Virus record (IMG/VR): IMGVR_UViG_3300033485_000001
Coordinates: 64,001 to 128,000 of that record
Source of the DNA: a virus
Length of the DNA stretch: 64,000 bases
Reading direction: 5' to 3' (one strand)
Under the pieces are notes generated by a model. That model saw only the letters and a list, made by a program, of their open reading frames with translations, was not told the DNA's origin and searched no databases. Below, in pieces: positions 21,301 to 62,743 of this stretch. How positions within the stretch are numbered: position 1 is the first letter of the stretch; each line of letters begins with the position of its first letter. A program made the translations under genes and the position numbers.

Positions 21301-22103
21301 AGGTCGACGGGAGTGCTTGGGCAGCCTCCTTCACGATCCACGAGAGCCGTGGGCCGTACATCCACATCAGCCGCAGCGGGGTTCAGCGGATCAGCTCCAC
21401 GGCCATGTCGGCGCAGATCGACGACTTGGGGTTCTACTACTTCGACGTGGAGTGCGTCAGCGAAGGTTTCGGCACGCCGTGGAACATCTCCGCTGATCAG
21501 CAGGCTACGGCTGAGGGGTACTCCTCCGATGGGTGGGAGGTCACCGTCGAGGACGAGAACCTCTCCTACTCGATGGCCGAGCATCCCTGGTTGCACATCA
21601 GCCCTCGCATCCTCGTGGTCGGCAACGAGGACGACGAGACGAACAAGGTCGAGCTGGTCGGCAGCAACGTGCAGATCGTGTACGAGCGGGACCCGCTCGT
21701 GCAAGACGTCCACACCTACGTCACGGATGCGCAGACCAGAGTGGTCTGTCAGAGCCCGCTGGCCAGGTCGCTCTTCCCGAAGTTCATCAGGACAGCGATC
21801 ACGTATCGTGGCGGCGGAGAGGTTCGGGATGTCAGGGTCGACATCACAGCTCACATCGAGTCGGTTCTCCCAGAGCAGATGCTCGAGGCATCCGACATAA
21901 CGAAGATCATCACTGACACCGGATCCTCTTACGTGCAGCTCCCTATCACAATGGTGGGCATCGGGCACAACGCGGACAGGACGATCTCGGTGGAAAGGGA
22001 CCAGGATGCCATCTCGTCAGGGCGCCTCTCGGCACTGCTGCCGGATGACAACGAAGAGACAGCGGATGGGGCGAGCTACATCAGCCTGACCAGGATCATC
22101 TAG
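18318..22103 (+). CDS. Baseplate J-like (gp6/gp47-type wedge) protein, 1261 aa
   Basis: N-terminal EGSTIMDLLVKP...LD..ANFFITRK.G, VAERAGTLYNI and GSDEET..QL..R...SL..R..TT.G are baseplate J hallmarks. Confidence 0.75.
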   Translation: MAITDWTLFIQERLRAYQPDINLNTGSPATVQVVNPIVNRMAPDPVETKLLTFIMTRLQQEHPMLYAREGSTIMDLLVKPNLVLLEPLRREITSVKNQLTLLYPEQLTSDEADALVANFFITRKLGDYARVKVRLYFQNPVSVNIGTANVAFTARGLRYLPIRAQSITAEGMLTNWDGNLYYFDVSYVAERAGTLYNIAASEIIGVTGISAATRATNLTKASPGSDEETTSQLVSRAERSLGERSLTTVPGIVFQLFDQFPALTILQIIGYNDPEMMRDVITGGNLGEVVLFGPGGFTVDDGDGDGYTWLFSDSTTSFTTAFGPVGTDISDYALTAWYLDGAVLTPHDFKLSEVLGATQVSIDPELEGSDRLPDGLTNVIWTIRKRALLTLSGIPGGIIFPTLMGGEVEIEDGVIHVGGCTDFYIRGGDIEDKSLAVELVSDQDVVARREDAQTTNGSPVVILNDLSAEEFNDIVEGDTSLYLEEGSDQGAYRIIQKFPVGPPYAVRLSADMTATATDISFNLVDDVDVDLLDPKDIRFVGTDLRTVAGSPIIDTVSGTPDFVGVGVTDQDIVEILNGSDEGEYSIAAGGVAAGQITLASAMSVTGSPLQYRIFHRQDGIELPLLRIKSVERLDSGLEPTGELVPYKHPVDIQSRSFQNPGREAKVGTGIDVTEGSYLRATAGSKLLTAMDITGGATGIDFWALGLRPGDLININSTDNQGYYTAELVGTGGGLAADQIQVSKAMRWSTAIGQDMQYEAGGPSYGSFRLYFLDPTSFAATYENTIFSVTVNGVTRRFRPDPDVDNQYLPTDVTIPTVAMTATSDVVSPYDVGGTASIDLSAHLVRQGDLVEITYAPIIGSADLTSVSLNLDGLRLKIDVGFGTETVYFSGTSLGVDEIVSQMNAQLSREVAAKYTSPTATDHIMLRADIPISLISDGAVADATLLVFGTNRPLYMWPALAGSFVGVTTQNDAPDKGIYAAQSIGAYPPGSVTLTEVDGSAWAASFTIHESRGPYIHISRSGVQRISSTAMSAQIDDLGFYYFDVECVSEGFGTPWNISADQQATAEGYSSDGWEVTVEDENLSYSMAEHPWLHISPRILVVGNEDDETNKVELVGSNVQIVYERDPLVQDVHTYVTDAQTRVVCQSPLARSLFPKFIRTAITYRGGGEVRDVRVDITAHIESVLPEQMLEASDITKIITDTGSSYVQLPITMVGIGHNADRTISVERDQDAISSGRLSALLPDDNEETADGASYISLTRII

Positions 22104-22426
22104 CGAATGATGGGGATCCTTGGTTCGATTCGTGCGAGGTTCCCCATCTCGAGGAGCAGACCTGAGAATGGATCGAACAGGCAGCGGCAGTCGACGCAGC
22201 GGCACAGGCACTTCGGAATCGGCCTCGAGCTGTTGGAGATGACGCTGCCGTCCTCGCACAGCTCCAGGTCGTTGTCCAGGTCTCGCTCCTTGACGGTCGT
22301 GCCCCCACAACGAGGGCACGATGCGTCGTTGTAGATCTTCTGGTCCGCTTCGACGAGGGGAGTCAGAAGGTCAACCTCGTCGGCGAGGATGGCCTTGAGC
22401 AGTTTGGGGTCCATCTCCTTGAACAT
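22100..22426 (-). CDS. Zinc-ribbon protein, lone antisense gene in the structural operon
   Basis: CPRC...CLCRCVDCRC; ATG at 22426; convergent stop overlap with the baseplate J gene. Confidence 0.7.
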   Translation of the reverse strand: MFKEMDPKLLKAILADEVDLLTPLVEADQKIYNDASCPRCGGTTVKERDLDNDLELCEDGSVISNSSRPIPKCLCRCVDCRCLFDPFSGLLLEMGNLARIEPRIPIIR

Positions 22427-22434
22427 CAAGGTCT

Positions 22435-22442
22435 AGTATACT
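22435..22442. promoter_or_regulatory. Palindromic AGTATACT giving a TATACT -10-like hexamer on both strands between divergent genes
   Basis: AT-rich palindrome in a 40-bp divergent intergenic gap of a GC-rich genome. Confidence 0.45.
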
Positions 22443-22467
22443 GGGGGGAAGGCGCGGGTAACAGAGG

Positions 22468-25400
22468 ATGACAACCCCGAGTGCGATCTACGGAAACTTC
22501 CAGTACGGCCAGAGCTACTACGGCTACCTCGCCGGGTTTCCTGTGTCCGACGACTTCAGGATCTTCGACTTCTGCTACCCTGTCGACGCGGTCATGGGGC
22601 TTCTGTTCGCGTACCCGGAGGTCTCGGCACCACGGTTCGGACTGCCCTGGAACTGGTTCGATCCGTCCTACAACTTCTGCATGTTCAGCGACGACGGAGC
22701 CGAGTCGGGCTTCCGCATCGACCTGTCCGTGCCGCAGCCGTACTGCACGATCCAGTTCTCGATCGAGCCGGTGAGCCTCCCGCAGAACTTCTCGGACCTG
22801 GCCAACAGCTGCGTCTTCGTTGGCGTCTTCAACCAGTTCGGAAAGATGGGCGGCCTCCTCGTCTCGGAGAACGAGGGGCTCGCCCTTGCGCAGAGCGGCG
22901 TCGGACCCTACATCGTCCTCCCCGACTCAGCGGATATCTTCGACGAGGGAGACGGCCCATACGTTTTCAGGTTCACGATCAACGAGTCCACAGGTAAGGG
23001 GAACCTCTACGTCACCAGGAAGGACGTCCTCACTGCAACAGGCGTTCACCAGCTCCGCTACACCTTCTCGCTGCTCGCGTGTCCTGCGGGCGAGACGGAC
23101 AACTTCCGGGTCGAGGTTCGCGGGACAGCTTCTGATCCAACCGAGATCCACCTCGGCTGTATCCGGATGGACGACCGGGAGAAGATTCCAAACCAGCGAC
23201 CTGTGGCTGTGCCGGGACCTGACAAGACACAGATCGTCGGAAACTACGTCGCCTTCGATGGTAGGGAGAGCTACGATCCCGAGGGTCAGCCCTTGAAGTT
23301 TTGGTGGAGCCTCGTCGAGGTTCCCGATGGATCGGCGTACAGGGCTCGGGTCGCGGGAGACACGCCAGCGGATCCGACTGGGTACACGAACGTCGTGCTC
23401 TGCCCGTCTGGTCCACCACCTGTCCCGTTCACCGACATCCTCGAGGGGGACATCTTCGTGAACGAGGATGGGTTCTCCACGATCATGTACGTCGCGTCCG
23501 ACGGGAGCTACTTCGTGCTCGCGGACGATCTCCTCAACGCCGGCACAACGGTCGAAGGCTACGTCGCGAAGCAGATCGTGTGGGGAGGAACACGTCGCCC
23601 CACCACGGTGCAGGACGTCCTCGACGTTGAGAACACGCCGCCACTGCTTCCGGCAGACGGGGATACGTACCTGGTCGACACGGCTCCGGTCGGTTTGTGG
23701 GCCGGTCAGGCTGGGTACCTGGCGACCTGGAGCTCGTCGGGAGGGGTGTGGTTGTTCAGCCTCCCGGCCTTCGACACGATCATCTACGCGATCGGGAAGT
23801 TCGAGTGCTTCCGGCACGCCGGCGCTGGCATCTGGTATGAGGCAGCGCCGAAGGGGTGGGAGCTGGATCACTGGGAGGGAAGGACAGACCAGATCGGCGT
23901 GATGCTCGTGGACACCCTCCGCCTCTTCGTCGTGGAGCTGCTCGTCAACGACGGTGAGCTGGACAGCCTCCCAGCGGAGGTCCTCTGCAACTCCTACGAG
24001 ACCAACGTCCAGCTTGGGCTCACTCCAGACCTGAGCTTCATCTGGAACTACATCTCGGACTTCTGGAAGATCGTGGAGGGTCGGGAGAAGGCGGAGACCG
24101 TGTGGTCTGGACTGGCTCAGGTCTACACCGATCTGCTCATGCGCCTGTGGCAGTACGACTACGCGAAGAGCATCCTGGACATCCAGCGCCTCTTCCAGGT
24201 TCGCTGGATCGACTACAGCCTGGTGTACGAGGAGCCCAACTACGACGAGCTGCCGGCGACCATTGAGAGCTCGGTGGACGCCTCCGGCTTTTCCGTGGCC
24301 CCCGGCGTGACGGAGCGGGCCTTCGATCTCGGGGCGGTCGTCGCAGACGTAAGCGATCTGAACTACCTCGTTCTCGACAGCATACCCTACAAGGTCATTC
24401 GAGTGGAGCAGGGAGCCACGACCGTGGTCATCACGTCGGATCCCATGCCGCACGACGATGCGATCGCTGTGTGGGTGACACCGCCGGAGTCGCAAGTCCC
24501 GCCTCTCGCGCCGTCAGATGGGGACGCCTACATGGTGGGGATTGGCGGGACAGATGCCTGGGTGGGGCGCGACGGCGAGATCGCAACGTGGAACGAGGAC
24601 GACAGCCTCTGGGACTTCAGCGAGTCCGTGCGCCCGAAGGCGTGGATGATCCGCGCCAGCGTGGTCTCGCGGTTCAGCAACTTCTCCGATCTGCGGGTGT
24701 CTCCCGGCGACACGGCCACCTTCGAGGTTCGCCTCGATGGCGATGTGACGGACGTGACGTGCTACGTCTACGCCGTTCGCGGCAGTGCGATGATCTTCGA
24801 CCAGACGAACATCTTGGCTTACCTCGCCGACGACTCGTACACGGTCAGGTTCAAGAGCGTTCTGCGTCAGTCGGAGATGCAGGTCAACGACCTGGTGAAG
24901 ACCATCCCGAGGTTGCAAGACACCATCGCCATCATCAGGGTCCCCGGAGCCAGCGCGCCGCTGCTCGAGTACAGGGACTTCCGAGTCGAAAAGATCACCA
25001 CCATCGAGGATCGTGAGGTCAACACGATCCAGTTCGACAACTTGTGGTTCCCGTTCGACCTTCGGGGGTTCGCGGGGTACACGACCGCACCCGATCACCA
25101 CTACTTCTACGACAACACCGTCGACTTCGAGGCGACGTTCGGTGCTGGAGCAGACCTGCGCGACTACGTCATCGAGATCGACGGTGGGAGCGTACATCGA
25201 CTCTGGTCGGTCGTCGGCCCGACACAGGTGCAGCTCTACGACCCAGAGCTGCTGCTCGGGCTCTCCGGGAAGAAGTGGTGGATCCGTCGTCGGGAGGTGC
25301 CACCCGCGACGCTGTGGGCAGAGATCACCTTCCTCGACAACAGCTCGCTCATCGAGGCCAACTTCGGCCGGCTGGTCGGACTTGGCATCGACAAGTTGGA

Positions 25401-32599: not shown

Positions 32600-33228
32600 T
32601 GATCAACTTCGCTGCATTCGCCGACGAGTTCCAGAAGATTGGGGCGACAATACGTCCTCCAGAGACCTCCAGCCTCCCCAGCTTTCAGCGTCGGATCAAG
32701 CCGGGCGACATCCTGTTGACCTCCTTCGACAGGGCCGAGCCGCAGCTCAAGATGGAGCTCACGCTGCCGGAGCGAGTCTTCCGCTCGCTCTCGAGGAAGA
32801 TCCAGGGTGAGACGGAGCACTCGGCCATCTACATCGGGAAGGGGCAGGTCATCGAGACGGCCCCCAGGACCGGCGCCGTGGTCAAGCCTCTCACGAACAT
32901 GATCGGTGGGCAGGGTGGCATCATAGCCGTTCGGCCAACCGTGGAGGAGGACGAGCGCCGTCGGGCCGTGCAGAGAGCCAGGGAGCTGCTTGGGACCAGG
33001 TACAGCATTCCCAGGCTTGCGCGAGCAGGTCTCGCGAACTACATCCGACTCCGTCCCGAGAGGGTCAGCGACAGGTCCAAGCACGAGTACATCTGCTCCA
33101 CCCTCGTTGGGGACGCCTACCACGATGTCCAGTTCAACGAGCGCAAGCCCTACGACGCGCTCATGCCCGCTGACTTCTTCAGGTCCGACAAGACCGAGAC
33201 CGTGGCGAAGCTGCGTCCAGCAGCATGA
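32599..33228 (+). CDS. Circularly permuted NlpC/P60 (YiiX/YebB-like, peptidase C92) enzyme with FADEFQKIG leader
   Basis: PGDILL...EHSAIYIG.GQVIE (His first), Y at GTRYS, and YICSTLV (Cys last); TGATG-coupled start at 32599. Confidence 0.8.
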   Translation: MINFAAFADEFQKIGATIRPPETSSLPSFQRRIKPGDILLTSFDRAEPQLKMELTLPERVFRSLSRKIQGETEHSAIYIGKGQVIETAPRTGAVVKPLTNMIGGQGGIIAVRPTVEEDERRRAVQRARELLGTRYSIPRLARAGLANYIRLRPERVSDRSKHEYICSTLVGDAYHDVQFNERKPYDALMPADFFRSDKTETVAKLRPAA

Positions 33229-33234
33229 TCACAT

Positions 33235-33309
33235 AAAAAAGAGGCTCCAGAGACCTGCTGACGCCAGACGGCGGGGGGAACCGTCTGCGTCAGCATGATC
33301 TCCGGAGCC
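33235..33309 (-). terminator. Very long hairpin (28 bp, 2 G-U pairs, 2 bulges, 9-nt loop) followed by U6 on the minus strand
   Basis: Arms are 33243-33271 and 33281-33309; A6 at 33235-33240 on plus; the wobble pairs form only on the minus strand. Confidence 0.75.
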
Positions 33310-33350
33310 AAGCCCGAAGGAGAGAAAGGAGTAACCTCCTCCGTCTCACT
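33235..33350 (-). ncRNA. Candidate ~115-nt small RNA (two hairpins + U-tract)
   Basis: TATAAG at 33359-33354 immediately upstream; hairpin 33320-33347 plus the long terminal hairpin; no plausible ORF ends before the terminator. Confidence 0.5.
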
Positions 33351-33353
33351 TCT

Positions 33354-33359
33354 CTTATA
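33354..33359 (-). promoter_or_regulatory. TATAAG -10-like element
   Basis: The same hexamer precedes minus-strand units at 50293 and 56475. Confidence 0.5.
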
Positions 33360-33370
33360 CCATGATGTGG

Positions 33371-33580
33371 CTAGTAGTTCACGATCTCCTTAGCTGCTTT
33401 TATGATCACGGCCCTGGCGTGTTCCAACGATGTGACGTTGTCCATGCTCAGGCCGAGCGATGCCGCAAGTTCCTTGATCTCGTTGAGGGACATCCTCCTG
33501 AGATCCTCGTCAGTCAGCTTGATGCAAGGATCCCCGTTCTTGAACCGCCGGGCGGTCCCGCCACCCGACGTCTGACCCCC
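33371..33580 (-). other. In-frame 69-codon extension after the UGA of 33581-34366 (readthrough candidate), HeH/Rho-N-like
   Basis: Reads GGQTSGGGTARRFKNGDPCIKLTDEDLRRMSLNEIKELAASLGLSMDNVTSLEHARAVIIKAAKEIVNY*; same frame as the upstream gene, with no well-spaced start of its own. Confidence 0.6.
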
Positions 33581-34366
33581 TCAGTCCTCCTTCGGCGTCT
33601 TGCCGAGGGCCTTGTTGGCGATCTCCTCGGCCTTGGCGATCACGTCCCCGAATCCGGGCTTCAGGGGCTGCGCCGCGCCGAGCTTCCAGATCCTCGCGAA
33701 GGCGAACTTCACGATCTCCGCGAAGACGGTGTGCCTCTCGACGAACTTGTCGACCACGTCGCGGAGCTCCACCACCGCCTCGATGGTGGAGACGGTGAGG
33801 TCCAGCAGCTTGTCGACCTTGGCCTCGAGGGCGGAGACGTCCGAGGTGGACTCCTCCGTCCTCTTGGCCTTCCGCTCCGCCTTGCGAGGCGGGTCGGCCT
33901 CGTGGTTCTCGACGCCCTCGTCGTCACCGTGGGGTCCGTCCTCGTCGTCGCCGCTGTCTTCGTCGTTGGCCTTGGACTCCTCCTTGACCTCGTCGTTGTC
34001 GTCGTCGTCGTCGAAGGCGCTCGAGTAGGGGTCGTCATCGTCGTCCTTGCTGACGTTGCCGCCCTTGTCCTCCTTGGGCTTGGAGTCGCGCTTGGCGTTC
34101 CGCTTGGGCTCCTCCTTGGGCTCCTCCTTCTTGGAGGTGGATCCGGTGGGGGCCTTGCCGGCGGACTTCTCGAGTCCGGGGAGGTCGATGGCACCCTCGT
34201 CGTACTTGGTCAAGATGATCTCGACCATCTTGTCTTCGCCCTCGACCTCGGCCTCACGGACCTCCTGCGGCGTGCAGCCGGCCTCGTGCATGACCCGGCG
34301 GAGCCGGTACTTGGCCATCTTCAGGGCCGCCTGCTTGAACGCTTCACGCTCTTCGTTCTTTCCCAT
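33581..34366 (-). CDS. Acidic low-complexity protein, 261 aa
   Basis: GGAG before the ATG; central D/E/K-rich disordered region and a helical C-terminus. Confidence 0.8.
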   Translation of the reverse strand: MGKNEEREAFKQAALKMAKYRLRRVMHEAGCTPQEVREAEVEGEDKMVEIILTKYDEGAIDLPGLEKSAGKAPTGSTSKKEEPKEEPKRNAKRDSKPKEDKGGNVSKDDDDDPYSSAFDDDDDNDEVKEESKANDEDSGDDEDGPHGDDEGVENHEADPPRKAERKAKRTEESTSDVSALEAKVDKLLDLTVSTIEAVVELRDVVDKFVERHTVFAEIVKFAFARIWKLGAAQPLKPGFGDVIAKAEEIANKALGKTPKED

Positions 34367-56136: not shown

Positions 56137-56171
56137 AAAGGGGAGGCGTCTCAGATGTTGAGACGCCTCCC
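56135..56171 (-). terminator. Intrinsic terminator, 13-bp perfect stem + U5 on the minus strand (possibly bidirectional)
   Basis: GGGAGGCGTCTCA-GATGT-TGAGACGCCTCCC preceded by AAAAAG on plus. Confidence 0.85.
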
Positions 56172-56201
56172 TTCACTTTCCACAGCCATCGACTCCGGAC
56201 G

Positions 56202-56297
56202 CTACTCGTCGTCGTCGGAATCGATCAGCCACTCCTCCGTGCTTCCTGTGACCACTGCGACGTACGCAGACAGGAACGCCAGGAGGAAAAGTCTCAT
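56202..56297 (-). CDS. 31-aa peptide MRLFLLAFLSAYVAVVTGSTEEWLIDSDDDE (hydrophobic N-terminus, acidic C-terminus)
   Basis: AAAGGAGGT SD; lies between promoter and terminator. Confidence 0.65.
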   Translation of the reverse strand: MRLFLLAFLSAYVAVVTGSTEEWLIDSDDDE

Positions 56298-56331
56298 CCA
56301 ACCTCCTTTCCGTCAGACGACACGGTACCCA

Positions 56332-56427
56332 TCAGTCGGCCTCGTAGTCGCCGAGGAGATCGTCCTCGACCTCCGACTCGAAGTCCGCGAGCTCGCTGTC
56401 CTCCACCACGTCTTCCGGATCCACCAT
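56332..56427 (-). CDS. 31-aa highly acidic peptide MVDPEDVVEDSELADFESEVEDDLLGDYEAD
   Basis: AGGAGGT SD; 15/31 residues D/E and no K/R; codons match the host-like GC3 bias. Confidence 0.7.
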   Translation of the reverse strand: MVDPEDVVEDSELADFESEVEDDLLGDYEAD

Positions 56428-56469
56428 GCACCTCCTGAGCTAGGGTAAGAGTTTTCCCTACTCAATGAT

Positions 56470-56485
56470 CTTATATCTGGGATCT
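56470..56485 (-). promoter_or_regulatory. AGATCCCAGA-TATAAG promoter motif for the antisense mini-operon
   Basis: Near-identical to 50288-50303; 43 bp upstream of the first sORF. Confidence 0.6.
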
Positions 56486-56581
56486 TGTCGTCCTTGCACG
56501 CGATTGGTAGAGTGAATGAAGCTCATGTTGACCCCCTAGAGGACTGTGATCCTCGATGATCGGGGGTTGCGGAGGCAGCAA

Positions 56582-59500
56582 GTGGCGAGACTTGACCCGG
56601 CCGAGGGGTTCGAGATCCTCAAGAGTCATGTGAAGGACGCGATCTCCAGCTCGTTCCCACAGGAAGGAGCCAAGAACGTCCTCAAGCTCGAGAGCCTGGA
56701 CATCCCCGACAAGCTGAGCGTCAGCAACGTCGGAGAGCAGAAGGCCGCCAAGATGAACGGGCGCACCTGGGGCGTTCCCGTTCACGCGACGCTGGTGCTC
56801 GAAGACAAGAAGACAGGCAAGGTCCTTGACCGAAGCAAGATCAAGATCGCCACGCTGCCCAAGGTGACCAACCGCTACTCCTACATCGTGGAGGGGTCGG
56901 AGTACCAGGTCGACAACCAGTGGCGGCTCAAGCCGGGCGTCTACACGAAGGTCCAGCAGAACGGTGAGCTGGATTCCTTCTTCAACATTCAGGGGCAGCC
57001 GCTGCATCTCGGCTTCGACCCGAAGGAGCGGTCCTTCGTGATGAAGCACGGAGGAGCGCAGCCCCCGCTGTACCCGATCATGCGGGCTCTTGGTCACAGC
57101 GACGGTGACCTCGAGAAGGCGTGGGGCAAGGACATCCTCAACGCCAACATGACCGACAGCCGGGGGAAGGTGCTGAAGGTCGACAAGCACGCCATCGCCT
57201 TCGCGAAGCGCCTGGTGCCAGAGGAGGAGATCACAACCCTCGAGAAGGCGTCGGAGGTCATCAAGCAGAAGTTCGCCGAGTCGCGTCTGCACCCTGACGT
57301 AACGAGCCGCACGCTGGGCAAGGCCATCGACAAGATCACACCAGAGGCGATGCTGCGCTCGTCTCAGCGCCTTCTCGGCGTGGCTCGTGGGACCGAGAAG
57401 CCTGACGTCCGGGACTCACTCATGTTCAAGGAGTTCCTCAGCACCGAGGACTTCATTGGGGAGCGGATCAAGCAGAGCAGCCCGGTCATCCAGCGTCGCA
57501 TCGGGAACAACATCGACAGGCGGGACAAGATCCGTGACATCGTGGGCATGGATGTCTTCCAGCGACCCGTCAAGGAGTTCTTCTCCAAGGTGTCCCTGGC
57601 CTCGACCCCAGAGCAGACCAACCCCCTCAAGATGATCTCGGGTCAGCTTCGTACAACGATCGCTGGGGAGGGTGGCGTCAAGGACGCGAACAGGATCACA
57701 GAGGATGCGAAGCTGGTGGACCCAAGCCACTTCGGCGTTCTCGATCCACTGCACACACCGGAGAGCGTGAAGACCGGCGTGAACCTCCAGCTCGCCCTGG
57801 GGACCAGGAAGGTGGGGACTCGCGTAGAGATCCCGCTCATCCACGCCAGGACCGGGAAGGTGACCTACCTGGATCCTGGGAAGATCAACGACGCCATGGT
57901 GGCGCTTCCCGATTCGGTGAAACGGGTGAACGGGAAGTTCTCTCCGAAGGAAGGATCCACGGTCCTGGTGAGCGGTCCTGGAAACGAGCTGATGCGCGTT
58001 CCCATGAAGGATGTCGAGTACGTCGTGCCGCGCTCGAGCCAGATGTTCTCGATCGCCACGAACATGGTCCCCTTCATCTCCAGCGATTCGCCGAACCGAG
58101 CAACCATGGCCGGCAGGCACATGGAGCAGGCCATCCCGCTCGTGAACCCAGAGGCCCCGCTGGTGCAGTCTGTCCTCGGCAAGAAGAGCTTCGACGAGCT
58201 CGTTGGTTCCTACGCCTCCCATGCGGCGCCGGCGGACGGGACCGTCCTGCGTGTCGAGAAGGACGCCATCCACATCAAGGGCTCCGACAAGAAGACCCAC
58301 ATCGTCCACACCTACGATCACTACCCGACCAACGACAAGAAGGGGATGATCCACAGCAACTCACTCGTGAAGGCCGGCGACAAGGTCACGAAGGGTCAGG
58401 TCGTAGCCGACACCAACTTCACCAAGAACGGCGTCTACGCCCCAGGCAAGAACCTCCAGGTCGCCTACATGCCGTGGCGGGGGTACAACTTCGAGGACGG
58501 CGTGGTGATCAGTGAGACTGCTGCGCAGAAGCTCACGAGCGAGCACCTCCACAAGAAGGGCCTGTCCACGAAGGAGGCGCAGCTTCTGGGGACGAAGAAG
58601 TACCAGGCGTACTACCAGGACCGTCTCAACAAGGAGCAGGCCGCCAAGCTGGATCCTGACGGAGTGGTCAAGCCTGGGATGAGGGTGAAGCCAGGAGACA
58701 CGCTGATCGCAGCTCTGGCGGAGCAGCAGCTCACCACCGAGGAGCAGAAGCTGAAGCTCTTGCACAAGAGCTTGGTGAGGCCGTTCAAGGACAAGGCAAT
58801 CACATGGGACGAGGACGTGGAGGGGGAGGTCATCGAGGTCAACAAGAGGGGGACCAGGGTCGACGTCCACGTCAAGACGGCGGAGCCGATGGACGTGGGG
58901 GACAAGCTGGTGGGTCGTCACGGAAACAAAGGAATCGTGACGATGATCCTACCAGACCACGAGATGCCGAAGACGAAGGACGGGAAACCGATCGAGGTGA
59001 TCATGAACCCCATCGGGACCCCCGGCCGTATGAACATTGGACAGGTCCTCGAGACGGCTGCCGCAAAGATCGCGCAGAAGACTGGTCAGCCCTTCAAGGT
59101 CACCAACTTCGAGGTGGAGAACAACCTCGAGTTCGTCGAGAACGAGCTCAAGAAGCACGGGCTGACCGACAAGGAATCGATCATCGATCCGAAGACGGGC
59201 AGGGAGATCCCGAACATCCAGGTTGGCCCGCAGTACATCCTGAAGATGGAACACCAGGTCGGGAAGAAGATGGCTGCCCGATCACGGGATTCTTACGACC
59301 GCAACCTGGTGCCGAAGGGTGGCGGTCCACACGGAGCTCAGGCCCTCGGCTCGCTCGGCATCTACTCCATGCTGGCCCACGGTGCCAAGGCCAACATCCG
59401 GGAGATGCAGACCTACAAGAGCGACAAGTCGCAGGGTGGTGACAACGACGAGCTCTGGAGTGCGCTCCAGGCTGGTGAGATGCTGCCCCCGCCCAGGACC

Positions 59501-62500
59501 ACCTTCGCCTACAACAAGTTCAACTCCTACCTGAAGGCGCTCGGAGTGAACACTGAGAAGGACGGCAACAGCCTGAACCTCGTGCCGCTCACGGACAAGG
59601 ACGTCCTCTCGATGTCCAACGGCGAGCTCAAGGACGCGGGCCGCGTCGTGAAGATGAGGACGCTCCAGCCGGAGAAGAACGGCCTCTTCGATCCGAAGAT
59701 CACAGGCGGGCATGACGGGACCAACTGGTCCCACATCAAGCTCACCTCACCCATGCCGAACCCCCTGTTCGAGAAAGCCATCATGAGCGTGGCTGGGATC
59801 CGTGGTCCGCAGTTCGACAAGATCATAGGTGGCACGGCGGGTGTGACGAAGGACGGCGCCATCGTCGAGCAGACGGGTGTGAAGGGGGCGACCTACGGAC
59901 CCGCAGCGATCGATCACTTGCTGGCGAAGGTGGACATCAAGAAGGACCTCGCGGTGGAGGAGGCACGGATCCAAGGGCTCAAGGGCCAGCTTCAGAACGA
60001 GTCGAGGCGCAAGATCAAGTACCTCCGTGCGTTGGACAAGCTGGGCATGAAGCCGACTGACGCCTACATGATGAAGCACGTTCCGATCCTGCCTCCGAAC
60101 ATGCGGCCCATCGCCGTGCTCGATGACGGGAGCCTCCAGACCGATGACCTGAACGAGATCTACAAGCAGCTCGCGATCGTCAACAAGAAGCACGGCGAGT
60201 TTCCGGCCAACGCGCCGCAGTCGCTCAAGGCCCCGCTCCAGGAGGACATCTACGATCACCTGAAGTCCCTCACTGGGCTCGGTGGCACCCTCAACAGGAA
60301 GCACCCTGGCATCCTCGACGTCCTCTCAGGACGTGAGGGACCGAAGACCAGCTTCGCACAGGACGTTCTGATCAAGCGCAAGCAGGACCTCACCATGAGG
60401 TCCACCATCGTCCCGGAGCCGTCCCTCTCGCTGGACGAGGCGGAGATCCCGAGGAAGGCTGCGAAGGAGATGTACAAGCCCTTCCTGGTCCGGGAGCTGC
60501 GCCGCACAGCCGGAGTCACCCCGCTTGCCGCCAAGAAGATGATCGACGAGGACGACCCGCTCGCGAACAAGGCGCTGGATCGTGTGGTTCAGGAGCGCCC
60601 TGTGCTGCTGAAGCGCGACCCGGTCCTCCACAAGTACGGCATCCAGGCGTTCAAGCCACGGCTCGTCGAGGGGAAGGCCATCAAGATCCACCCCCTCGTG
60701 TGCTCCGGCTTCAACGCCGACTTCGATGGCGACACCATGAGCGCCTACGTTCCGATCACGGCGGAGGCCGTGAAGGAGGCGGAGCAGATGTTCCCCTCGC
60801 GGAACCTCTTCTCCCCGGCCACTGGATCCGTCATGTACACCCCCGGCCACGAAGCGCAGGTCGGCCTGTTCATGATGGCCGACGCTGGGAAGTGGACTGG
60901 TCAGCGGTTCAAGAGTCAGGCCGAGCTCGAGAGCGCGGTGAGAGCCGGGAAGGCGACTCAGAACGACGTGGTCATGGTGGGGAACGTCAAGACCACGCTC
61001 GGGAGATTGCAGATCAACAGCCACCTCCCAAAGGATCTCCAGGGAGGGAAACTCCTCACCGATCTGAACTACAGGTTCACGAAGAAGGAACAGGAGAAGC
61101 TCTTCAACGGCATGGTCAAGGTCGACCGCGCCGCGTATCCGTCTTCGATCAACAAGCTGAAGGACCTCGGGAACGAGGCAGCCACGATGGGCAGCTTCAG
61201 CTTCGGCCTCGGAGACTTCAAGGTCCACAAGGACATCCGTGATCCAATCCTGCGAAGCGCGGAGGCAAAGGCGGCCAAGCTGGACCTGTCCAAGAAGGAT
61301 CAGCTCAACAAGTTCATCGACATCTACGAGGGCGCGACCAACGAGATCGATGAGAAGCTGAAGCAGCGCATCGCCGACCCCAAGTTCCAGACCAACCTCG
61401 TCAAGCTCGAGGTGGCAGCTGGGATCAAGGGAAGGGGTCTGCGGCAGCTCACGGCAGCCCCAGTTCTCTTCGTAGACGGCAAGGGCGAGGTGGTCACCAG
61501 CCCCGTGAAGAAGTCCTACGCAGAGGGCCTCTCGTCAGGGGACTACTGGGCGGCGACCAGCGGCGGCAGGAAGGGTGCGATCCAGAAGGTCCAGTCGGTC
61601 AGTGAGCCGGGCTACCTGACGAAGCAGATGGCCAACAGCACCCTCGACATGCTCGTGGCCGCCAACGACTGCGGCACCAGCCGAGGCGTGAACCTGCACG
61701 TGGACGAGCCTGATGTGATCGGCAGGTACACCGTCGCGGACCTGAAGCTCCAGAAGGGAATCATCCCGGCGAACACCCTCGTCACGCCGGAGATCCTGAG
61801 CCGTATCAAGAACGCCAAGATCGACAAGGTCGTGGTCCGATCTCCGATGCGCTGTGTCCACGGTAAGGGTGTCTGTGCGAAGTGCATGGGGCTCAACGAG
61901 AACGGGAAGCTCAACGATCTGGGAACCAACGTGGGCATCCTGGCCACCCAGTCCATCGGCGAGCGCGGCACGCAGCTTGCCATGAAGGCGTTCCACTCAG
62001 GCGGCGTCTACGAGGGCAGGGAAGCAGCCACGAAGTCCATTGCAGCGGGTGGCCTCGACCGAGCCGGCAACATCCTGAACCTCCCGCAGAAGCTCAAGGG
62101 ATCAGCGATCCTCTCGACCACTGTCGGTCGGGTGAACAAGATCGAGAAGGATCCCGCCGGCGGTGTTCGAGTCTCCATCGGGGACAAGGAGCACTACGTC
62201 CCCGCCGACCGAGCGATGCTCGACAAGGTTCGCGTGGGGTACCAGGTCAAGAAGGGCGATCCGATTACCAACGGCCCCGTCAACCCACACGAGCTGCTCC
62301 CGCTCACCAACATGAGCAAGGTGCAGGGTCACCTGGCGGGGGAACTCCATTCCATCTACGGGCAGTACGGCATCAAGCGGAGGCACTCCGAGCTCATGGT
62401 GCGGGCGCTCTCGAACGTGACCAAGGTCGAGAACCCCGGCGGCAACCCAGACCTCCTGCCCGGAGACTTCACGAGCACGAGTCAGGTCTACGAGTGGAAC

Positions 62501-62743
62501 AAGCAGAACCCGAAGACCAAGCCCGTGGTTCACACCCCAGTTCTGCGCGGTGTGAAGACGATCCCCCTCGACATCCAAGAGGACTGGATGGCTCGATTGA
62601 ACCACGAGCACTTGAAGAGTACGCTTGTGGAGGCGGCACAGCAGGGATGGCAAAGCAACCTCCACGGCATGCACCCGATCCCGCCCCTCATGCATGGGGC
62701 CGAGTTCGGAAAGGGTACCAAGGACAAGCCCTGGGCCTACTGA
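56582..62743 (+). CDS. rpoBC: Single-chain fused beta-beta' (RpoB-RpoC-like) multisubunit-type RNA polymerase, about 2050 aa
   Basis: Beta motifs HFG..DP..TPES, YMPWRGYNFEDG, GDKLVGRHGNKG, MNPIGTPGRMNIGQ. Beta' motifs VPILPPNMRP, LLKRDPVLH, NADFDGD (60713-60733), GGRKG bridge helix, QSIGERGTQL..KAFHSGG. No stop between them; GGAGG SD before GTG 56582. Confidence 0.95.
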   Translation: MARLDPAEGFEILKSHVKDAISSSFPQEGAKNVLKLESLDIPDKLSVSNVGEQKAAKMNGRTWGVPVHATLVLEDKKTGKVLDRSKIKIATLPKVTNRYSYIVEGSEYQVDNQWRLKPGVYTKVQQNGELDSFFNIQGQPLHLGFDPKERSFVMKHGGAQPPLYPIMRALGHSDGDLEKAWGKDILNANMTDSRGKVLKVDKHAIAFAKRLVPEEEITTLEKASEVIKQKFAESRLHPDVTSRTLGKAIDKITPEAMLRSSQRLLGVARGTEKPDVRDSLMFKEFLSTEDFIGERIKQSSPVIQRRIGNNIDRRDKIRDIVGMDVFQRPVKEFFSKVSLASTPEQTNPLKMISGQLRTTIAGEGGVKDANRITEDAKLVDPSHFGVLDPLHTPESVKTGVNLQLALGTRKVGTRVEIPLIHARTGKVTYLDPGKINDAMVALPDSVKRVNGKFSPKEGSTVLVSGPGNELMRVPMKDVEYVVPRSSQMFSIATNMVPFISSDSPNRATMAGRHMEQAIPLVNPEAPLVQSVLGKKSFDELVGSYASHAAPADGTVLRVEKDAIHIKGSDKKTHIVHTYDHYPTNDKKGMIHSNSLVKAGDKVTKGQVVADTNFTKNGVYAPGKNLQVAYMPWRGYNFEDGVVISETAAQKLTSEHLHKKGLSTKEAQLLGTKKYQAYYQDRLNKEQAAKLDPDGVVKPGMRVKPGDTLIAALAEQQLTTEEQKLKLLHKSLVRPFKDKAITWDEDVEGEVIEVNKRGTRVDVHVKTAEPMDVGDKLVGRHGNKGIVTMILPDHEMPKTKDGKPIEVIMNPIGTPGRMNIGQVLETAAAKIAQKTGQPFKVTNFEVENNLEFVENELKKHGLTDKESIIDPKTGREIPNIQVGPQYILKMEHQVGKKMAARSRDSYDRNLVPKGGGPHGAQALGSLGIYSMLAHGAKANIREMQTYKSDKSQGGDNDELWSALQAGEMLPPPRTTFAYNKFNSYLKALGVNTEKDGNSLNLVPLTDKDVLSMSNGELKDAGRVVKMRTLQPEKNGLFDPKITGGHDGTNWSHIKLTSPMPNPLFEKAIMSVAGIRGPQFDKIIGGTAGVTKDGAIVEQTGVKGATYGPAAIDHLLAKVDIKKDLAVEEARIQGLKGQLQNESRRKIKYLRALDKLGMKPTDAYMMKHVPILPPNMRPIAVLDDGSLQTDDLNEIYKQLAIVNKKHGEFPANAPQSLKAPLQEDIYDHLKSLTGLGGTLNRKHPGILDVLSGREGPKTSFAQDVLIKRKQDLTMRSTIVPEPSLSLDEAEIPRKAAKEMYKPFLVRELRRTAGVTPLAAKKMIDEDDPLANKALDRVVQERPVLLKRDPVLHKYGIQAFKPRLVEGKAIKIHPLVCSGFNADFDGDTMSAYVPITAEAVKEAEQMFPSRNLFSPATGSVMYTPGHEAQVGLFMMADAGKWTGQRFKSQAELESAVRAGKATQNDVVMVGNVKTTLGRLQINSHLPKDLQGGKLLTDLNYRFTKKEQEKLFNGMVKVDRAAYPSSINKLKDLGNEAATMGSFSFGLGDFKVHKDIRDPILRSAEAKAAKLDLSKKDQLNKFIDIYEGATNEIDEKLKQRIADPKFQTNLVKLEVAAGIKGRGLRQLTAAPVLFVDGKGEVVTSPVKKSYAEGLSSGDYWAATSGGRKGAIQKVQSVSEPGYLTKQMANSTLDMLVAANDCGTSRGVNLHVDEPDVIGRYTVADLKLQKGIIPANTLVTPEILSRIKNAKIDKVVVRSPMRCVHGKGVCAKCMGLNENGKLNDLGTNVGILATQSIGERGTQLAMKAFHSGGVYEGREAATKSIAAGGLDRAGNILNLPQKLKGSAILSTTVGRVNKIEKDPAGGVRVSIGDKEHYVPADRAMLDKVRVGYQVKKGDPITNGPVNPHELLPLTNMSKVQGHLAGELHSIYGQYGIKRRHSELMVRALSNVTKVENPGGNPDLLPGDFTSTSQVYEWNKQNPKTKPVVHTPVLRGVKTIPLDIQEDWMARLNHEHLKSTLVEAAQQGWQSNLHGMHPIPPLMHGAEFGKGTKDKPWAY

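Follow-up and report, generated by a model that had tools for sequence, protein, structure and literature searches.

A conserved promoter-to-terminator unit, probably a small-RNA gene, in a convergent gap of an uncultured 178-kb phage genome

Features of the locus

The 64-kb window analyzed here (bases 64001-128000 of IMG/VR virus record IMGVR_UViG_3300033485_000001, a genome of 178,539 bp with 62% G+C that is rated complete) contains an element composed of a promoter motif, two hairpins and a U-tract, which lies in a convergent gap of 142 nucleotides (nt) between a plus-strand stop codon at 33228 and a minus-strand stop codon at 33371. All coordinates are those of the window unless the genome is named. 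What the sequences present is a conserved, strand-specific RNA structure between a promoter motif and a hairpin with a U-tract, from which transcription and action are inferred; because the unit is conserved with compensating base changes in relatives, it most likely represents a genuine phage small RNA (sRNA). We propose that the element is a self-contained phage sRNA gene of ~113 nt (33347 to ~33235, minus strand) that occupies a slot with variable cargo and acts by pairing with Shine-Dalgarno (SD) regions, and we regard this overall proposal as moderately probable, with its individual parts graded where they are discussed. The features of the unit and of the two genes that flank it, including the small open reading frame (ORF) on its upstream side, are as follows.

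33377-33382, minus: -35-like GTGAAC, 17 nt upstream of TATAAG, within the last codons (I-V-N-Y) of the small ORF
33353-33362, minus: promoter core TGGTATAAGA, of the extended -10 type TG-n-TATAAG, with TATAAG itself at 33359-33354
33347, minus: predicted transcription start G, 7 nt past the -10 hexamer and the first base of hairpin 1
33315-33347, minus: hairpin 1 region, with two alternative folds, proximal and distal
33323-33334, minus: conserved motif UUACUCCUUUCU, which resembles the 16S rRNA 3' tail (..CACCUCCUUUCU)
33243-33309, minus: hairpin 2, 29 bp with two 1-nt bulges (RNAfold), which is both terminator stem and conserved long helix
33272-33280, minus: apical loop UUCCCCCCG (the C-run), at the top of hairpin 2
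33235-33240, minus: U6 tract of the intrinsic terminator, with CUC between hairpin 2 and U6
33371-33493, minus: small ORF, 40 amino acids (aa) as called, upstream of the RNA unit in every copy; its homologs are aligned at 98-55% identity
32503-33228, plus: Peptidase_C92-like gene, which ends the plus-strand virion gene block

An initial annotation of this DNA had described TATAAG, the hairpin 1 sequence, the long hairpin with its loop and the U6 as a minus-strand series, and all of them are read there; for example, GAGACGGAGGAG-GUUA-CUCCUUUCUCUC is present at 33347-33320 (minus).

Conservation and strand of the unit

The unit recurs immediately after the stop codon of the small ORF in 10 loci (the window, L006-L013 and L015), and the relatives that carry it are uncultured phages of wetland and freshwater. 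Homologs of the 40-aa ORF are found on public contigs at 98, 78, 73 and 70% identity (L006-L009) and at 55-58% (L010-L013), while L015, a 174-kb relative, was reached through a large tail-fibre-like gene. The parts of the unit follow one another in these copies as TGGTATAAGA, four variable bases, TGA, a purine-rich arm, a motif that reads (T/C)TACTCCTTTC (TAATCCTTTC in L015), a pyrimidine-rich arm, the long hairpin and a T-rich run, and the convergent gap measures 141-146 nt in the complete copies. A covariance model (R1) built from six copies scored full-length copies at 51-126 bits and identified a single copy in this genome; the same model had no match in three more distant genome fragments (G001-G003). 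The L008 contig, which ends inside hairpin 2, was left out of the pair counts, and the L017 contig ends before the junction.

In a model-guided alignment of seven distinct sequences, 88% of whose cells pair, compensatory changes on both sides were found in 15 of the 35 pairs, compared with 7.8±1.7 in column shuffles (0 of 500 reached the observed count) and 2-6 in slid controls; an earlier count with six sequences had given 13 pairs changed on both sides. For the lower helix of hairpin 2 the both-side changes fall in 11/15 pairs, and 92% of its cells are paired. The initial annotation had named a lack of structural conservation as the outcome that would reduce the element to a convergent terminator, and the presence of the unit in 10 loci means that it is not a chance hairpin. 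It had also proposed an Infernal/Rfam search and a test for covariation, of which the latter gave the compensatory pairs just described and the former gave no family, since no Rfam model reached its gathering score anywhere in the window and, at E values up to 10, the window and L010 copies showed only generic miRNA-hairpin matches far below threshold.

Other searches returned little from known phages. Among the INPHARED cultured phages there was no DNA match and no protein match for the neighbouring gene, and the DNA polymerase of this phage has at most 30% identity to any of them. IMG/VR yielded no matches for the flanking proteins, exact patterns matched there either the record of L003 only or nothing, and a pattern scan of metagenomes had no matches. 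A 1536-aa tail-fibre-like protein of this phage has homologs on public contigs that come from several sources and measure 167-186 kb, so a family of similar-sized uncultured phages exists, a possible source of further copies of the RNA.

Across the copies, G-U oppositions outnumber A-C oppositions by 28:5 (15:4 in hairpin 2, 13:1 in hairpin 1), an excess that points to a minus-strand RNA and not to a DNA palindrome. The sense strand folds better by 9-14 kcal/mol in three sequences, and both strands fold equally well in L009, L010 and L012. We are highly confident that the unit is a real, selected RNA structure on the minus strand.

Promoter

The core TGGTATAAGA is invariant in 12 loci (the window, L006-L013, L015, L018 and L019), while the spacer of 8-10 nt that separates it from the stop codon varies among the same loci. 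It fits a genome-wide promoter motif, [T/G]G[G/A]TATAAGAtc..TG with an A-rich patch near -20, that also stands ahead of most early-type genes of the phage. By our own estimate from base composition ~5 occurrences of TATAAGA would be expected in the genome, and there are 18; most of the 25 TATAAG[A/G] sites have a ribosome-binding site (RBS) and an ORF 27-80 nt downstream, and for this reason the motif is considered to behave as a promoter. At the distance of GTGAAC, class-1 promoters of the phage have GTGAAA or an A-rich element, and the conservation of GTGAAC is inseparable from the coding constraint of the small ORF. Counted from the T of TATAAG, a TG at +11/+12 is kept among the phage promoters and in all sRNA homologs (TATAAGA-N4-TGA) and, together with GTGAAC 17 nt upstream, it leads to the predicted start at G33347. 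The unit therefore has what appears to be a promoter of its own, given that TGGTATAAGA is invariant and matches the phage motif and that its counterpart at this spot in L019 drives an ORF; the start site is predicted.

The phage also encodes proteins that could read this promoter. A single 2065-aa ORF (56546-62743, plus) with Rpb2 domains 3 and 6 and Rpb1 domains 1, 2 and 5 is, judging from this domain content, a fused, size-reduced multisubunit (beta-beta') RNA polymerase. A sigma-like protein of 257 aa (1529-2302, plus), with a Sigma-70 region 3 match (E 1.9e-9) and a C-terminal helix-turn-helix, is a candidate reader of TGnTATAAG promoters.

The motif is found at other short transcription units as well. 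On the minus strand at genome 53735-53806 (~10.2 kb before the start of the window), GGGTATAAGA is followed by ~60 nt with a hairpin and T6 with no ORF nearby, which from its sequence reads as a second short promoter-to-terminator unit. At 56139-56475 (minus) of the window, AGATATAAGA at 56475 precedes a 5' hairpin and an RBS with a 31-aa ORF, after which a clean terminator (13-bp stem, T5) stands at 56139.

Hairpin 2 and the terminator

The 151-nt minus-strand stretch folds at -77.9 kcal/mol (z = -8.07; 0 of 200 shuffles equal it), and the plus strand, on which no T-run follows the hairpin, folds at -64.3 kcal/mol (z -5.2). Hairpin 2 alone has -53.5 in sense, with three G-U pairs, versus -43.6 in antisense, with none, so the earlier argument that G-U pairing assigns the structure to the minus strand holds. 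The stem had been given as 28 bp; the long hairpin is real, and the RNAfold count corrects its length to 29 pairs. Among hairpins followed by T5 or longer it is the strongest in the genome (-54.8), ahead of a runner-up with a 13-bp stem (-49.9), and hairpin plus T-run sites with dG below -15 number 12 in the genome. In every complete homolog, hairpin 2 is followed by a T-rich run. As is typical of an intrinsic terminator, the GC-rich hairpin is followed immediately by the U-tract, and it is located after the last minus-strand ORF, facing the converging gene.

A C-run of 5-7 is kept in the loops of the window, L006, L007, L009 and L010-13 despite rewritten stems, which argues for selection on the loop; the C-rich loop highlighted in the initial annotation is thus a feature of most relatives, with L015 having UUCCAUGCC instead. 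In a 98%-identical contig the hairpin differs only by a bulged base swap (33264 G>A, minus) and a loop shorter by one C, and homology of this variant to the window breaks at 33224, just past the U-tract, suggesting that the unit travels with the minus-strand block. A variant of 84-91% identity retains TGGTATAAGA and has a hairpin 2 region of the same length but diverged.

The unit also has the properties of a noncoding sequence. Its SD-like run is without a start codon at a usable distance, its loop differs in length by 1 nt both among 98% variants and among clades, and the sole ORF across it (53 aa, TTG start, 33311-33150) is antisense and runs into the neighbouring gene.

Hairpin 1 and a motif that resembles the 16S rRNA tail

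Hairpin 1 can form a proximal fold (GGAGGAG/CUCCUUU with loop GUUA; -20.2 kcal/mol in the window) or a distal fold (CGGAGGAGG/UCUCCUUCG with an 11-nt loop; -12.3 kcal/mol in the window). The proximal fold is optimal only in the window, L006 and L007, and its helix has no compensatory pairs. The distal fold, which places the motif in the loop, is optimal in L008, L009, L010-13 and L015, where its arms are GGAG-AGGGGU/ACCCU-C-CUCC, UCAGGGG/CCCCUGA and GGAGGAG/CUCUUCC and its loops have 8-16 nt; it was judged from single-sequence folds, the alignments being out of register for a column-based pair count. The GUUA-looped hairpin of the initial annotation is therefore the best fold in the clade of the window, but it lacks compensatory change and elsewhere gives way to a fold with the motif in the loop.

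The best conserved part of the RNA is UA(C/A)UCCUUUCU, which is kept in all 10 copies while its flanks change; TACTCCTTTC is identical in nine loci and L015 has one change (UAAUCCUUUCU). The 11-mer motif would be expected to occur 0.03 times by chance in the phage genome. It is predicted to be unpaired in L009, L010, L012 and L015, partly unpaired in L008 (the first seven bases), and paired in the window, L006 and L007. A 16S rRNA 3' tail of the ..CACCUCCUUUCU type has been described (PMC5427494). The motif is nearly identical to this free tail and is therefore complementary to strong SD sites such as AGAAAGGAGG, which is among the ribosome-binding sites of the phage and lies ahead of several of its genes. 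A second CUCCUUUCU past a TATAAG promoter (genome 45243, minus) was considered as another sRNA and rejected, as its position is within the 5' leader of an ORF for a membrane protein.

Variable cargo at the same slot

More distant homologs of the small ORF were found by profile search, and the sequence that follows it differs among them. In L019, TGGTATAAGA lies 11 nt past the stop codon and is followed by an RBS with an 81-aa ORF and then by a plain terminator. In L018, TGGTATAAGA heads an ORF-poor stretch of ~320 nt (1266-1612, plus; z -4.4 relative to shuffles) that contains GCUCCUUUCAC and ends in a hairpin with T4; a 98-aa ATG-initiated frame spans most of it, but this frame lacks an RBS, was not called as a gene and was judged unlike protein. 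The stretch may represent a longer non-coding RNA of another kind. The more distant relative L016 lacks a promoter here and has just a plain 12-bp terminator, which indicates that the minimal function of the site is termination. Of the distant relatives L002-L004, which were found through the DNA polymerase, L003 alone reaches the site: L003 has a weaker CATAAGA promoter, an SD-like stretch (CATAAGAGgtttGAGGCGGAGG) and then a tRNA-like element, and lacks the long hairpin. The tRNA-like element (17621-17687 of L003, plus) has a shortened anticodon arm and scores 42 bits on the Rfam tRNA model (gathering 29); ARAGORN does not call it.

The pattern at this slot in L019, L018, L003 and L016 suggests a genuine promoter, with the sRNA unit as a clade-specific elaboration of the operon terminator. 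One conserved promoter with swapped cargo (an sRNA, an ORF, a longer ORF-poor stretch or nothing) also illustrates how such units can be gained and exchanged.

The upstream operon

The minus-strand replication and recombination block extends from ~50000 down to 33371 and includes a DnaB-like helicase, a primase, DNA polymerase I, a RecA-like protein and RusA, followed by small ORFs. The product of the last of these, the 40-aa ORF, looks HeH/Rho-N-like when its sequence is judged by eye. Its frame is open upstream (33371-33610, minus) to the UGA stop codon of a 261-aa gene, GDPCIKLTDEDLR(R/K)M precedes its ATG and is conserved in L015, where most changes are synonymous, and AGGAGG abuts the ATG. 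Because of this open frame, the conserved stretch before the ATG and the abutting AGGAGG, the protein may start elsewhere or be a product of stop-codon read-through.

Candidate targets

The initial annotation had suggested, as a speculation, that the C-rich loop pairs with a G-run at 22442-22450 in the leader of what it called the large wedge gene. The sequence TGGGGGGAA is present there, 18 nt ahead of the start of the 1536-aa gene, but GGGGGGAA occurs six times in the genome, 9-nt matches are expected by chance, and the L015 leader keeps its G-run (TTGGGGGAAGG) while the L015 loop has no C-run; the match is at chance level and the proposed pairing is not supported. The G-run more likely belongs to the promoter or start region of the 1536-aa gene itself. 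In the same region (22100-22470), a short minus-strand ORF lies among plus-strand virion genes; past it, and immediately ahead of the 1536-aa DUF2793 gene, comes a conserved TAGTATACT-G-run stretch that is also found in L015.

Proposed action and alternative explanations

The existence of a separate, promoter-driven small RNA is likely in our assessment. The RNA would start at G33347 from the phage-type promoter TGGTATAAGA, which would probably be read by the host polymerase, or by the fused beta-beta' RNA polymerase of the phage together with its sigma factor. Its 5' stem-loop would carry UUACUCCUUUCU and its 3' end would be formed at the 29-bp hairpin 2 and U6, a structure that would also terminate the upstream replication and recombination operon and shield it from the converging late operon. 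From the sequence comparisons, the unit is most likely to represent a new family within the phage-encoded sRNAs, with hairpin 2 doubling as operon terminator.

Action through pairing of the pyrimidine-rich loops with SD regions is put forward tentatively. The 16S-tail-like loop and, in most relatives, the C-run loop would pair with purine-rich SD regions (AGAAAGGAG, GGGGG) of phage or host mRNAs, so that their translation would be blocked or tuned. In the clade of the window the motif would be mostly masked by the SD-like GGAGGAG, so that the motif would have to be opened, or this form of the RNA would be less active or subject to regulation. A possible partner is encoded by the phage itself:

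44693-44995, minus: Hfq/Sm-like protein, 100 aa, with a coiled-coil N-terminus; a possible partner whose association with the RNA is conjectural

The C-terminal domain of this protein has an Sm-like fold of five strands in an AlphaFold2 model (pLDDT 84-91), and the top matches of the model in a Foldseek search of PDB were Hfq of several bacteria and of M. jannaschii (TM(target) 0.6-0.77, rmsd ~2.5 A over 55 residues, probability 1.00). Pfam showed no Hfq or LSM match at E up to 1, and a PDB sequence search showed no Hfq chain at E up to 10. The protein has 60-79% identity to its counterparts in relatives, and a homolog is encoded on the 46.9-kb contig with the L009 copy of the sRNA. The modelled fold makes it a possible sRNA chaperone or helper, which may bind the U tail and assist.

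Several observations weigh against a promoter-driven sRNA that pairs with SD regions. The sequencing runs listed with this DNA are DNA runs only, with no RNA run among them, so the transcript, its start and its end are predictions and the term sRNA remains an inference. The -10 hexamer ends in G where T is usual, and L016 manages with a plain terminator in place of the promoter and the long hairpin. The covariation comes from seven distinct sequences in ~4 clades, in an alignment that was fitted to the model. The motif is predicted to be paired in the window itself (P unpaired ~0-0.1), and the loss of the C-run from the L015 loop shows that the C-run is not essential to the RNA family. In addition, a scan of the phage genome for complementarity gave 10-14-nt matches in roughly the number expected by chance, and SD-like targets are too generic for one to be singled out, as GAAAGGAG sites are generic ribosome-binding sites.

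The same evidence bears on other explanations of the site. Hairpin and U6 come 10-130 nt after the operon's final stop codon, the corresponding position in L016 holds a simple terminator, and with so few other hairpin plus T-run sites in the genome a strong one at the point of convergence would be sensible; all of this fits a terminator or structured 3' end of the minus-strand operon only, possibly acting as a bidirectional barrier, with an inactive promoter-like motif and no separate RNA. That this is the whole function is nonetheless unlikely, since termination has no need of invariance in TGGTATAAGA and the 11-nt motif, of a 26-30-bp stem that covariation maintains or of a C-run loop shared across clades, and in L019 this promoter, at the corresponding spot, drives an ORF. 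Far less credible is a DNA-level palindrome (a cruciform, or a recombination or packaging signal). The long inverted repeat does lie at a module boundary, next to the homology break of the 98% variant, and the equal folding of both strands in L009, L010 and L012 would suit it; yet the G-U excess and the folding advantage in three sequences both favour the sense strand, the bulges are asymmetric, and T-run and promoter are on one strand only.

Two further possibilities, each improbable, accept an RNA but assign it another role. The convergent arrangement would suit a cis-antisense RNA of the lambda OOP type, transcribed from a promoter of its own and paired with read-through late transcripts, where RNase III cutting would set the 3' end or stability of the late mRNA; without a T-run after the hairpin on the plus strand, late transcripts could enter the unit and would be fully complementary to it. 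However, the RNA ends 6 nt before the plus-strand stop codon (U-tract end 33235, stop codon end 33228), which leaves no coding overlap, the plus-side neighbour differs among relatives, homology breaks at 33224, and the conserved loop motif and C-run are single-stranded parts that full antisense pairing does not need. The RNA might instead titrate a protein that acts on the 16S 3' end or on double-stranded RNA (a ribosome-associated protein, an RNase or a defence nuclease) without pairing to mRNA. A decoy of this kind is suggested by the match of the motif to the 16S tail, over its final 8 nt (UCCUUUCU) and at 11/13 positions of UCACCUCCUUUCU, and by the long, near-perfect stem whose length is maintained, but the factor would be hypothetical, the motif is masked in the clade of the window, and resemblance to the anti-SD sequence is equally expected of a seed that targets SD sites. 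A related and rather doubtful idea is that the RNA displays in its hairpin loop a mimic of the free 16S rRNA 3' tail and so reprograms translation during infection. Such a mimic, used by a phage that also brings an RNA polymerase, a sigma factor and an Hfq-like protein, would be a general competitor or sponge for strong SD sites, or would lure away a factor acting on the 16S tail, and the masked form in the clade of the window would be a switchable version.

Comparison with known systems

The small RNAs of lytic and large phages are, to our knowledge, poorly charted, and we know of almost none from uncultured environmental phages. The case described here is a promoter-to-terminator unit with comparative support from covariation, an invariant promoter and an invariant loop motif, in the unusual context of a phage family that encodes an Hfq-like protein and transcription machinery of its own. 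Should the transcript be confirmed together with an action on SD regions, the unit would define a new phage RNA family and provide a handle on how such phages steer translation.

Phage-encoded trans-acting small RNAs have been reviewed (PMC12197685), and an example is known from lambda (bioRxiv 10.1101/2024.10.31.621285). The unit is like them in being a short non-coding unit with its own (here predicted) promoter, an intrinsic terminator and an expected post-transcriptional action on mRNAs. It differs in having no sequence or Rfam relationship to any of them, in that its expression is predicted, in its unusually long 29-bp terminator stem and 16S-tail-like conserved motif, and in its source, the 178-kb genome of an uncultured phage that encodes both an RNA polymerase and a sigma factor.

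In 6C, an sRNA of Actinobacteria, C-rich loops bind mRNA targets (PMC6486639), and the unit shares with 6C, and with other sRNAs whose C-rich loops bind G-rich or SD regions, its stem-loops with C-rich single strands, a high-GC context and the proposed loop-mRNA pairing. The Rfam 6C model, however, had no match in the window at gathering and was not among the matches at E up to 10 for the window and L010 copies. Whereas 6C is chromosomal and has C-rich loops on at least two stem-loops, the unit is phage-borne, has its C-run in the hairpin 2 loop only and lacks it in L015, and its better conserved loop is CU-rich (UCCUUUCU).

With a Rho-independent terminator the unit has in common a GC-rich hairpin, a U6 within 2-3 nt and a location directly after the last gene of an operon; it is unlike an ordinary terminator in its 26-30-bp stem kept by covariation, its conserved loop composition, its conserved promoter 14 nt past the stop codon and its invariant upstream hairpin motif. 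Lambda OOP is a short antisense RNA at a convergent junction, and the unit resembles it in running over a short distance from promoter to terminator where two transcription units converge, but differs in that it has no coding overlap with the converging gene and that its conserved features are loops and not an antisense stretch.

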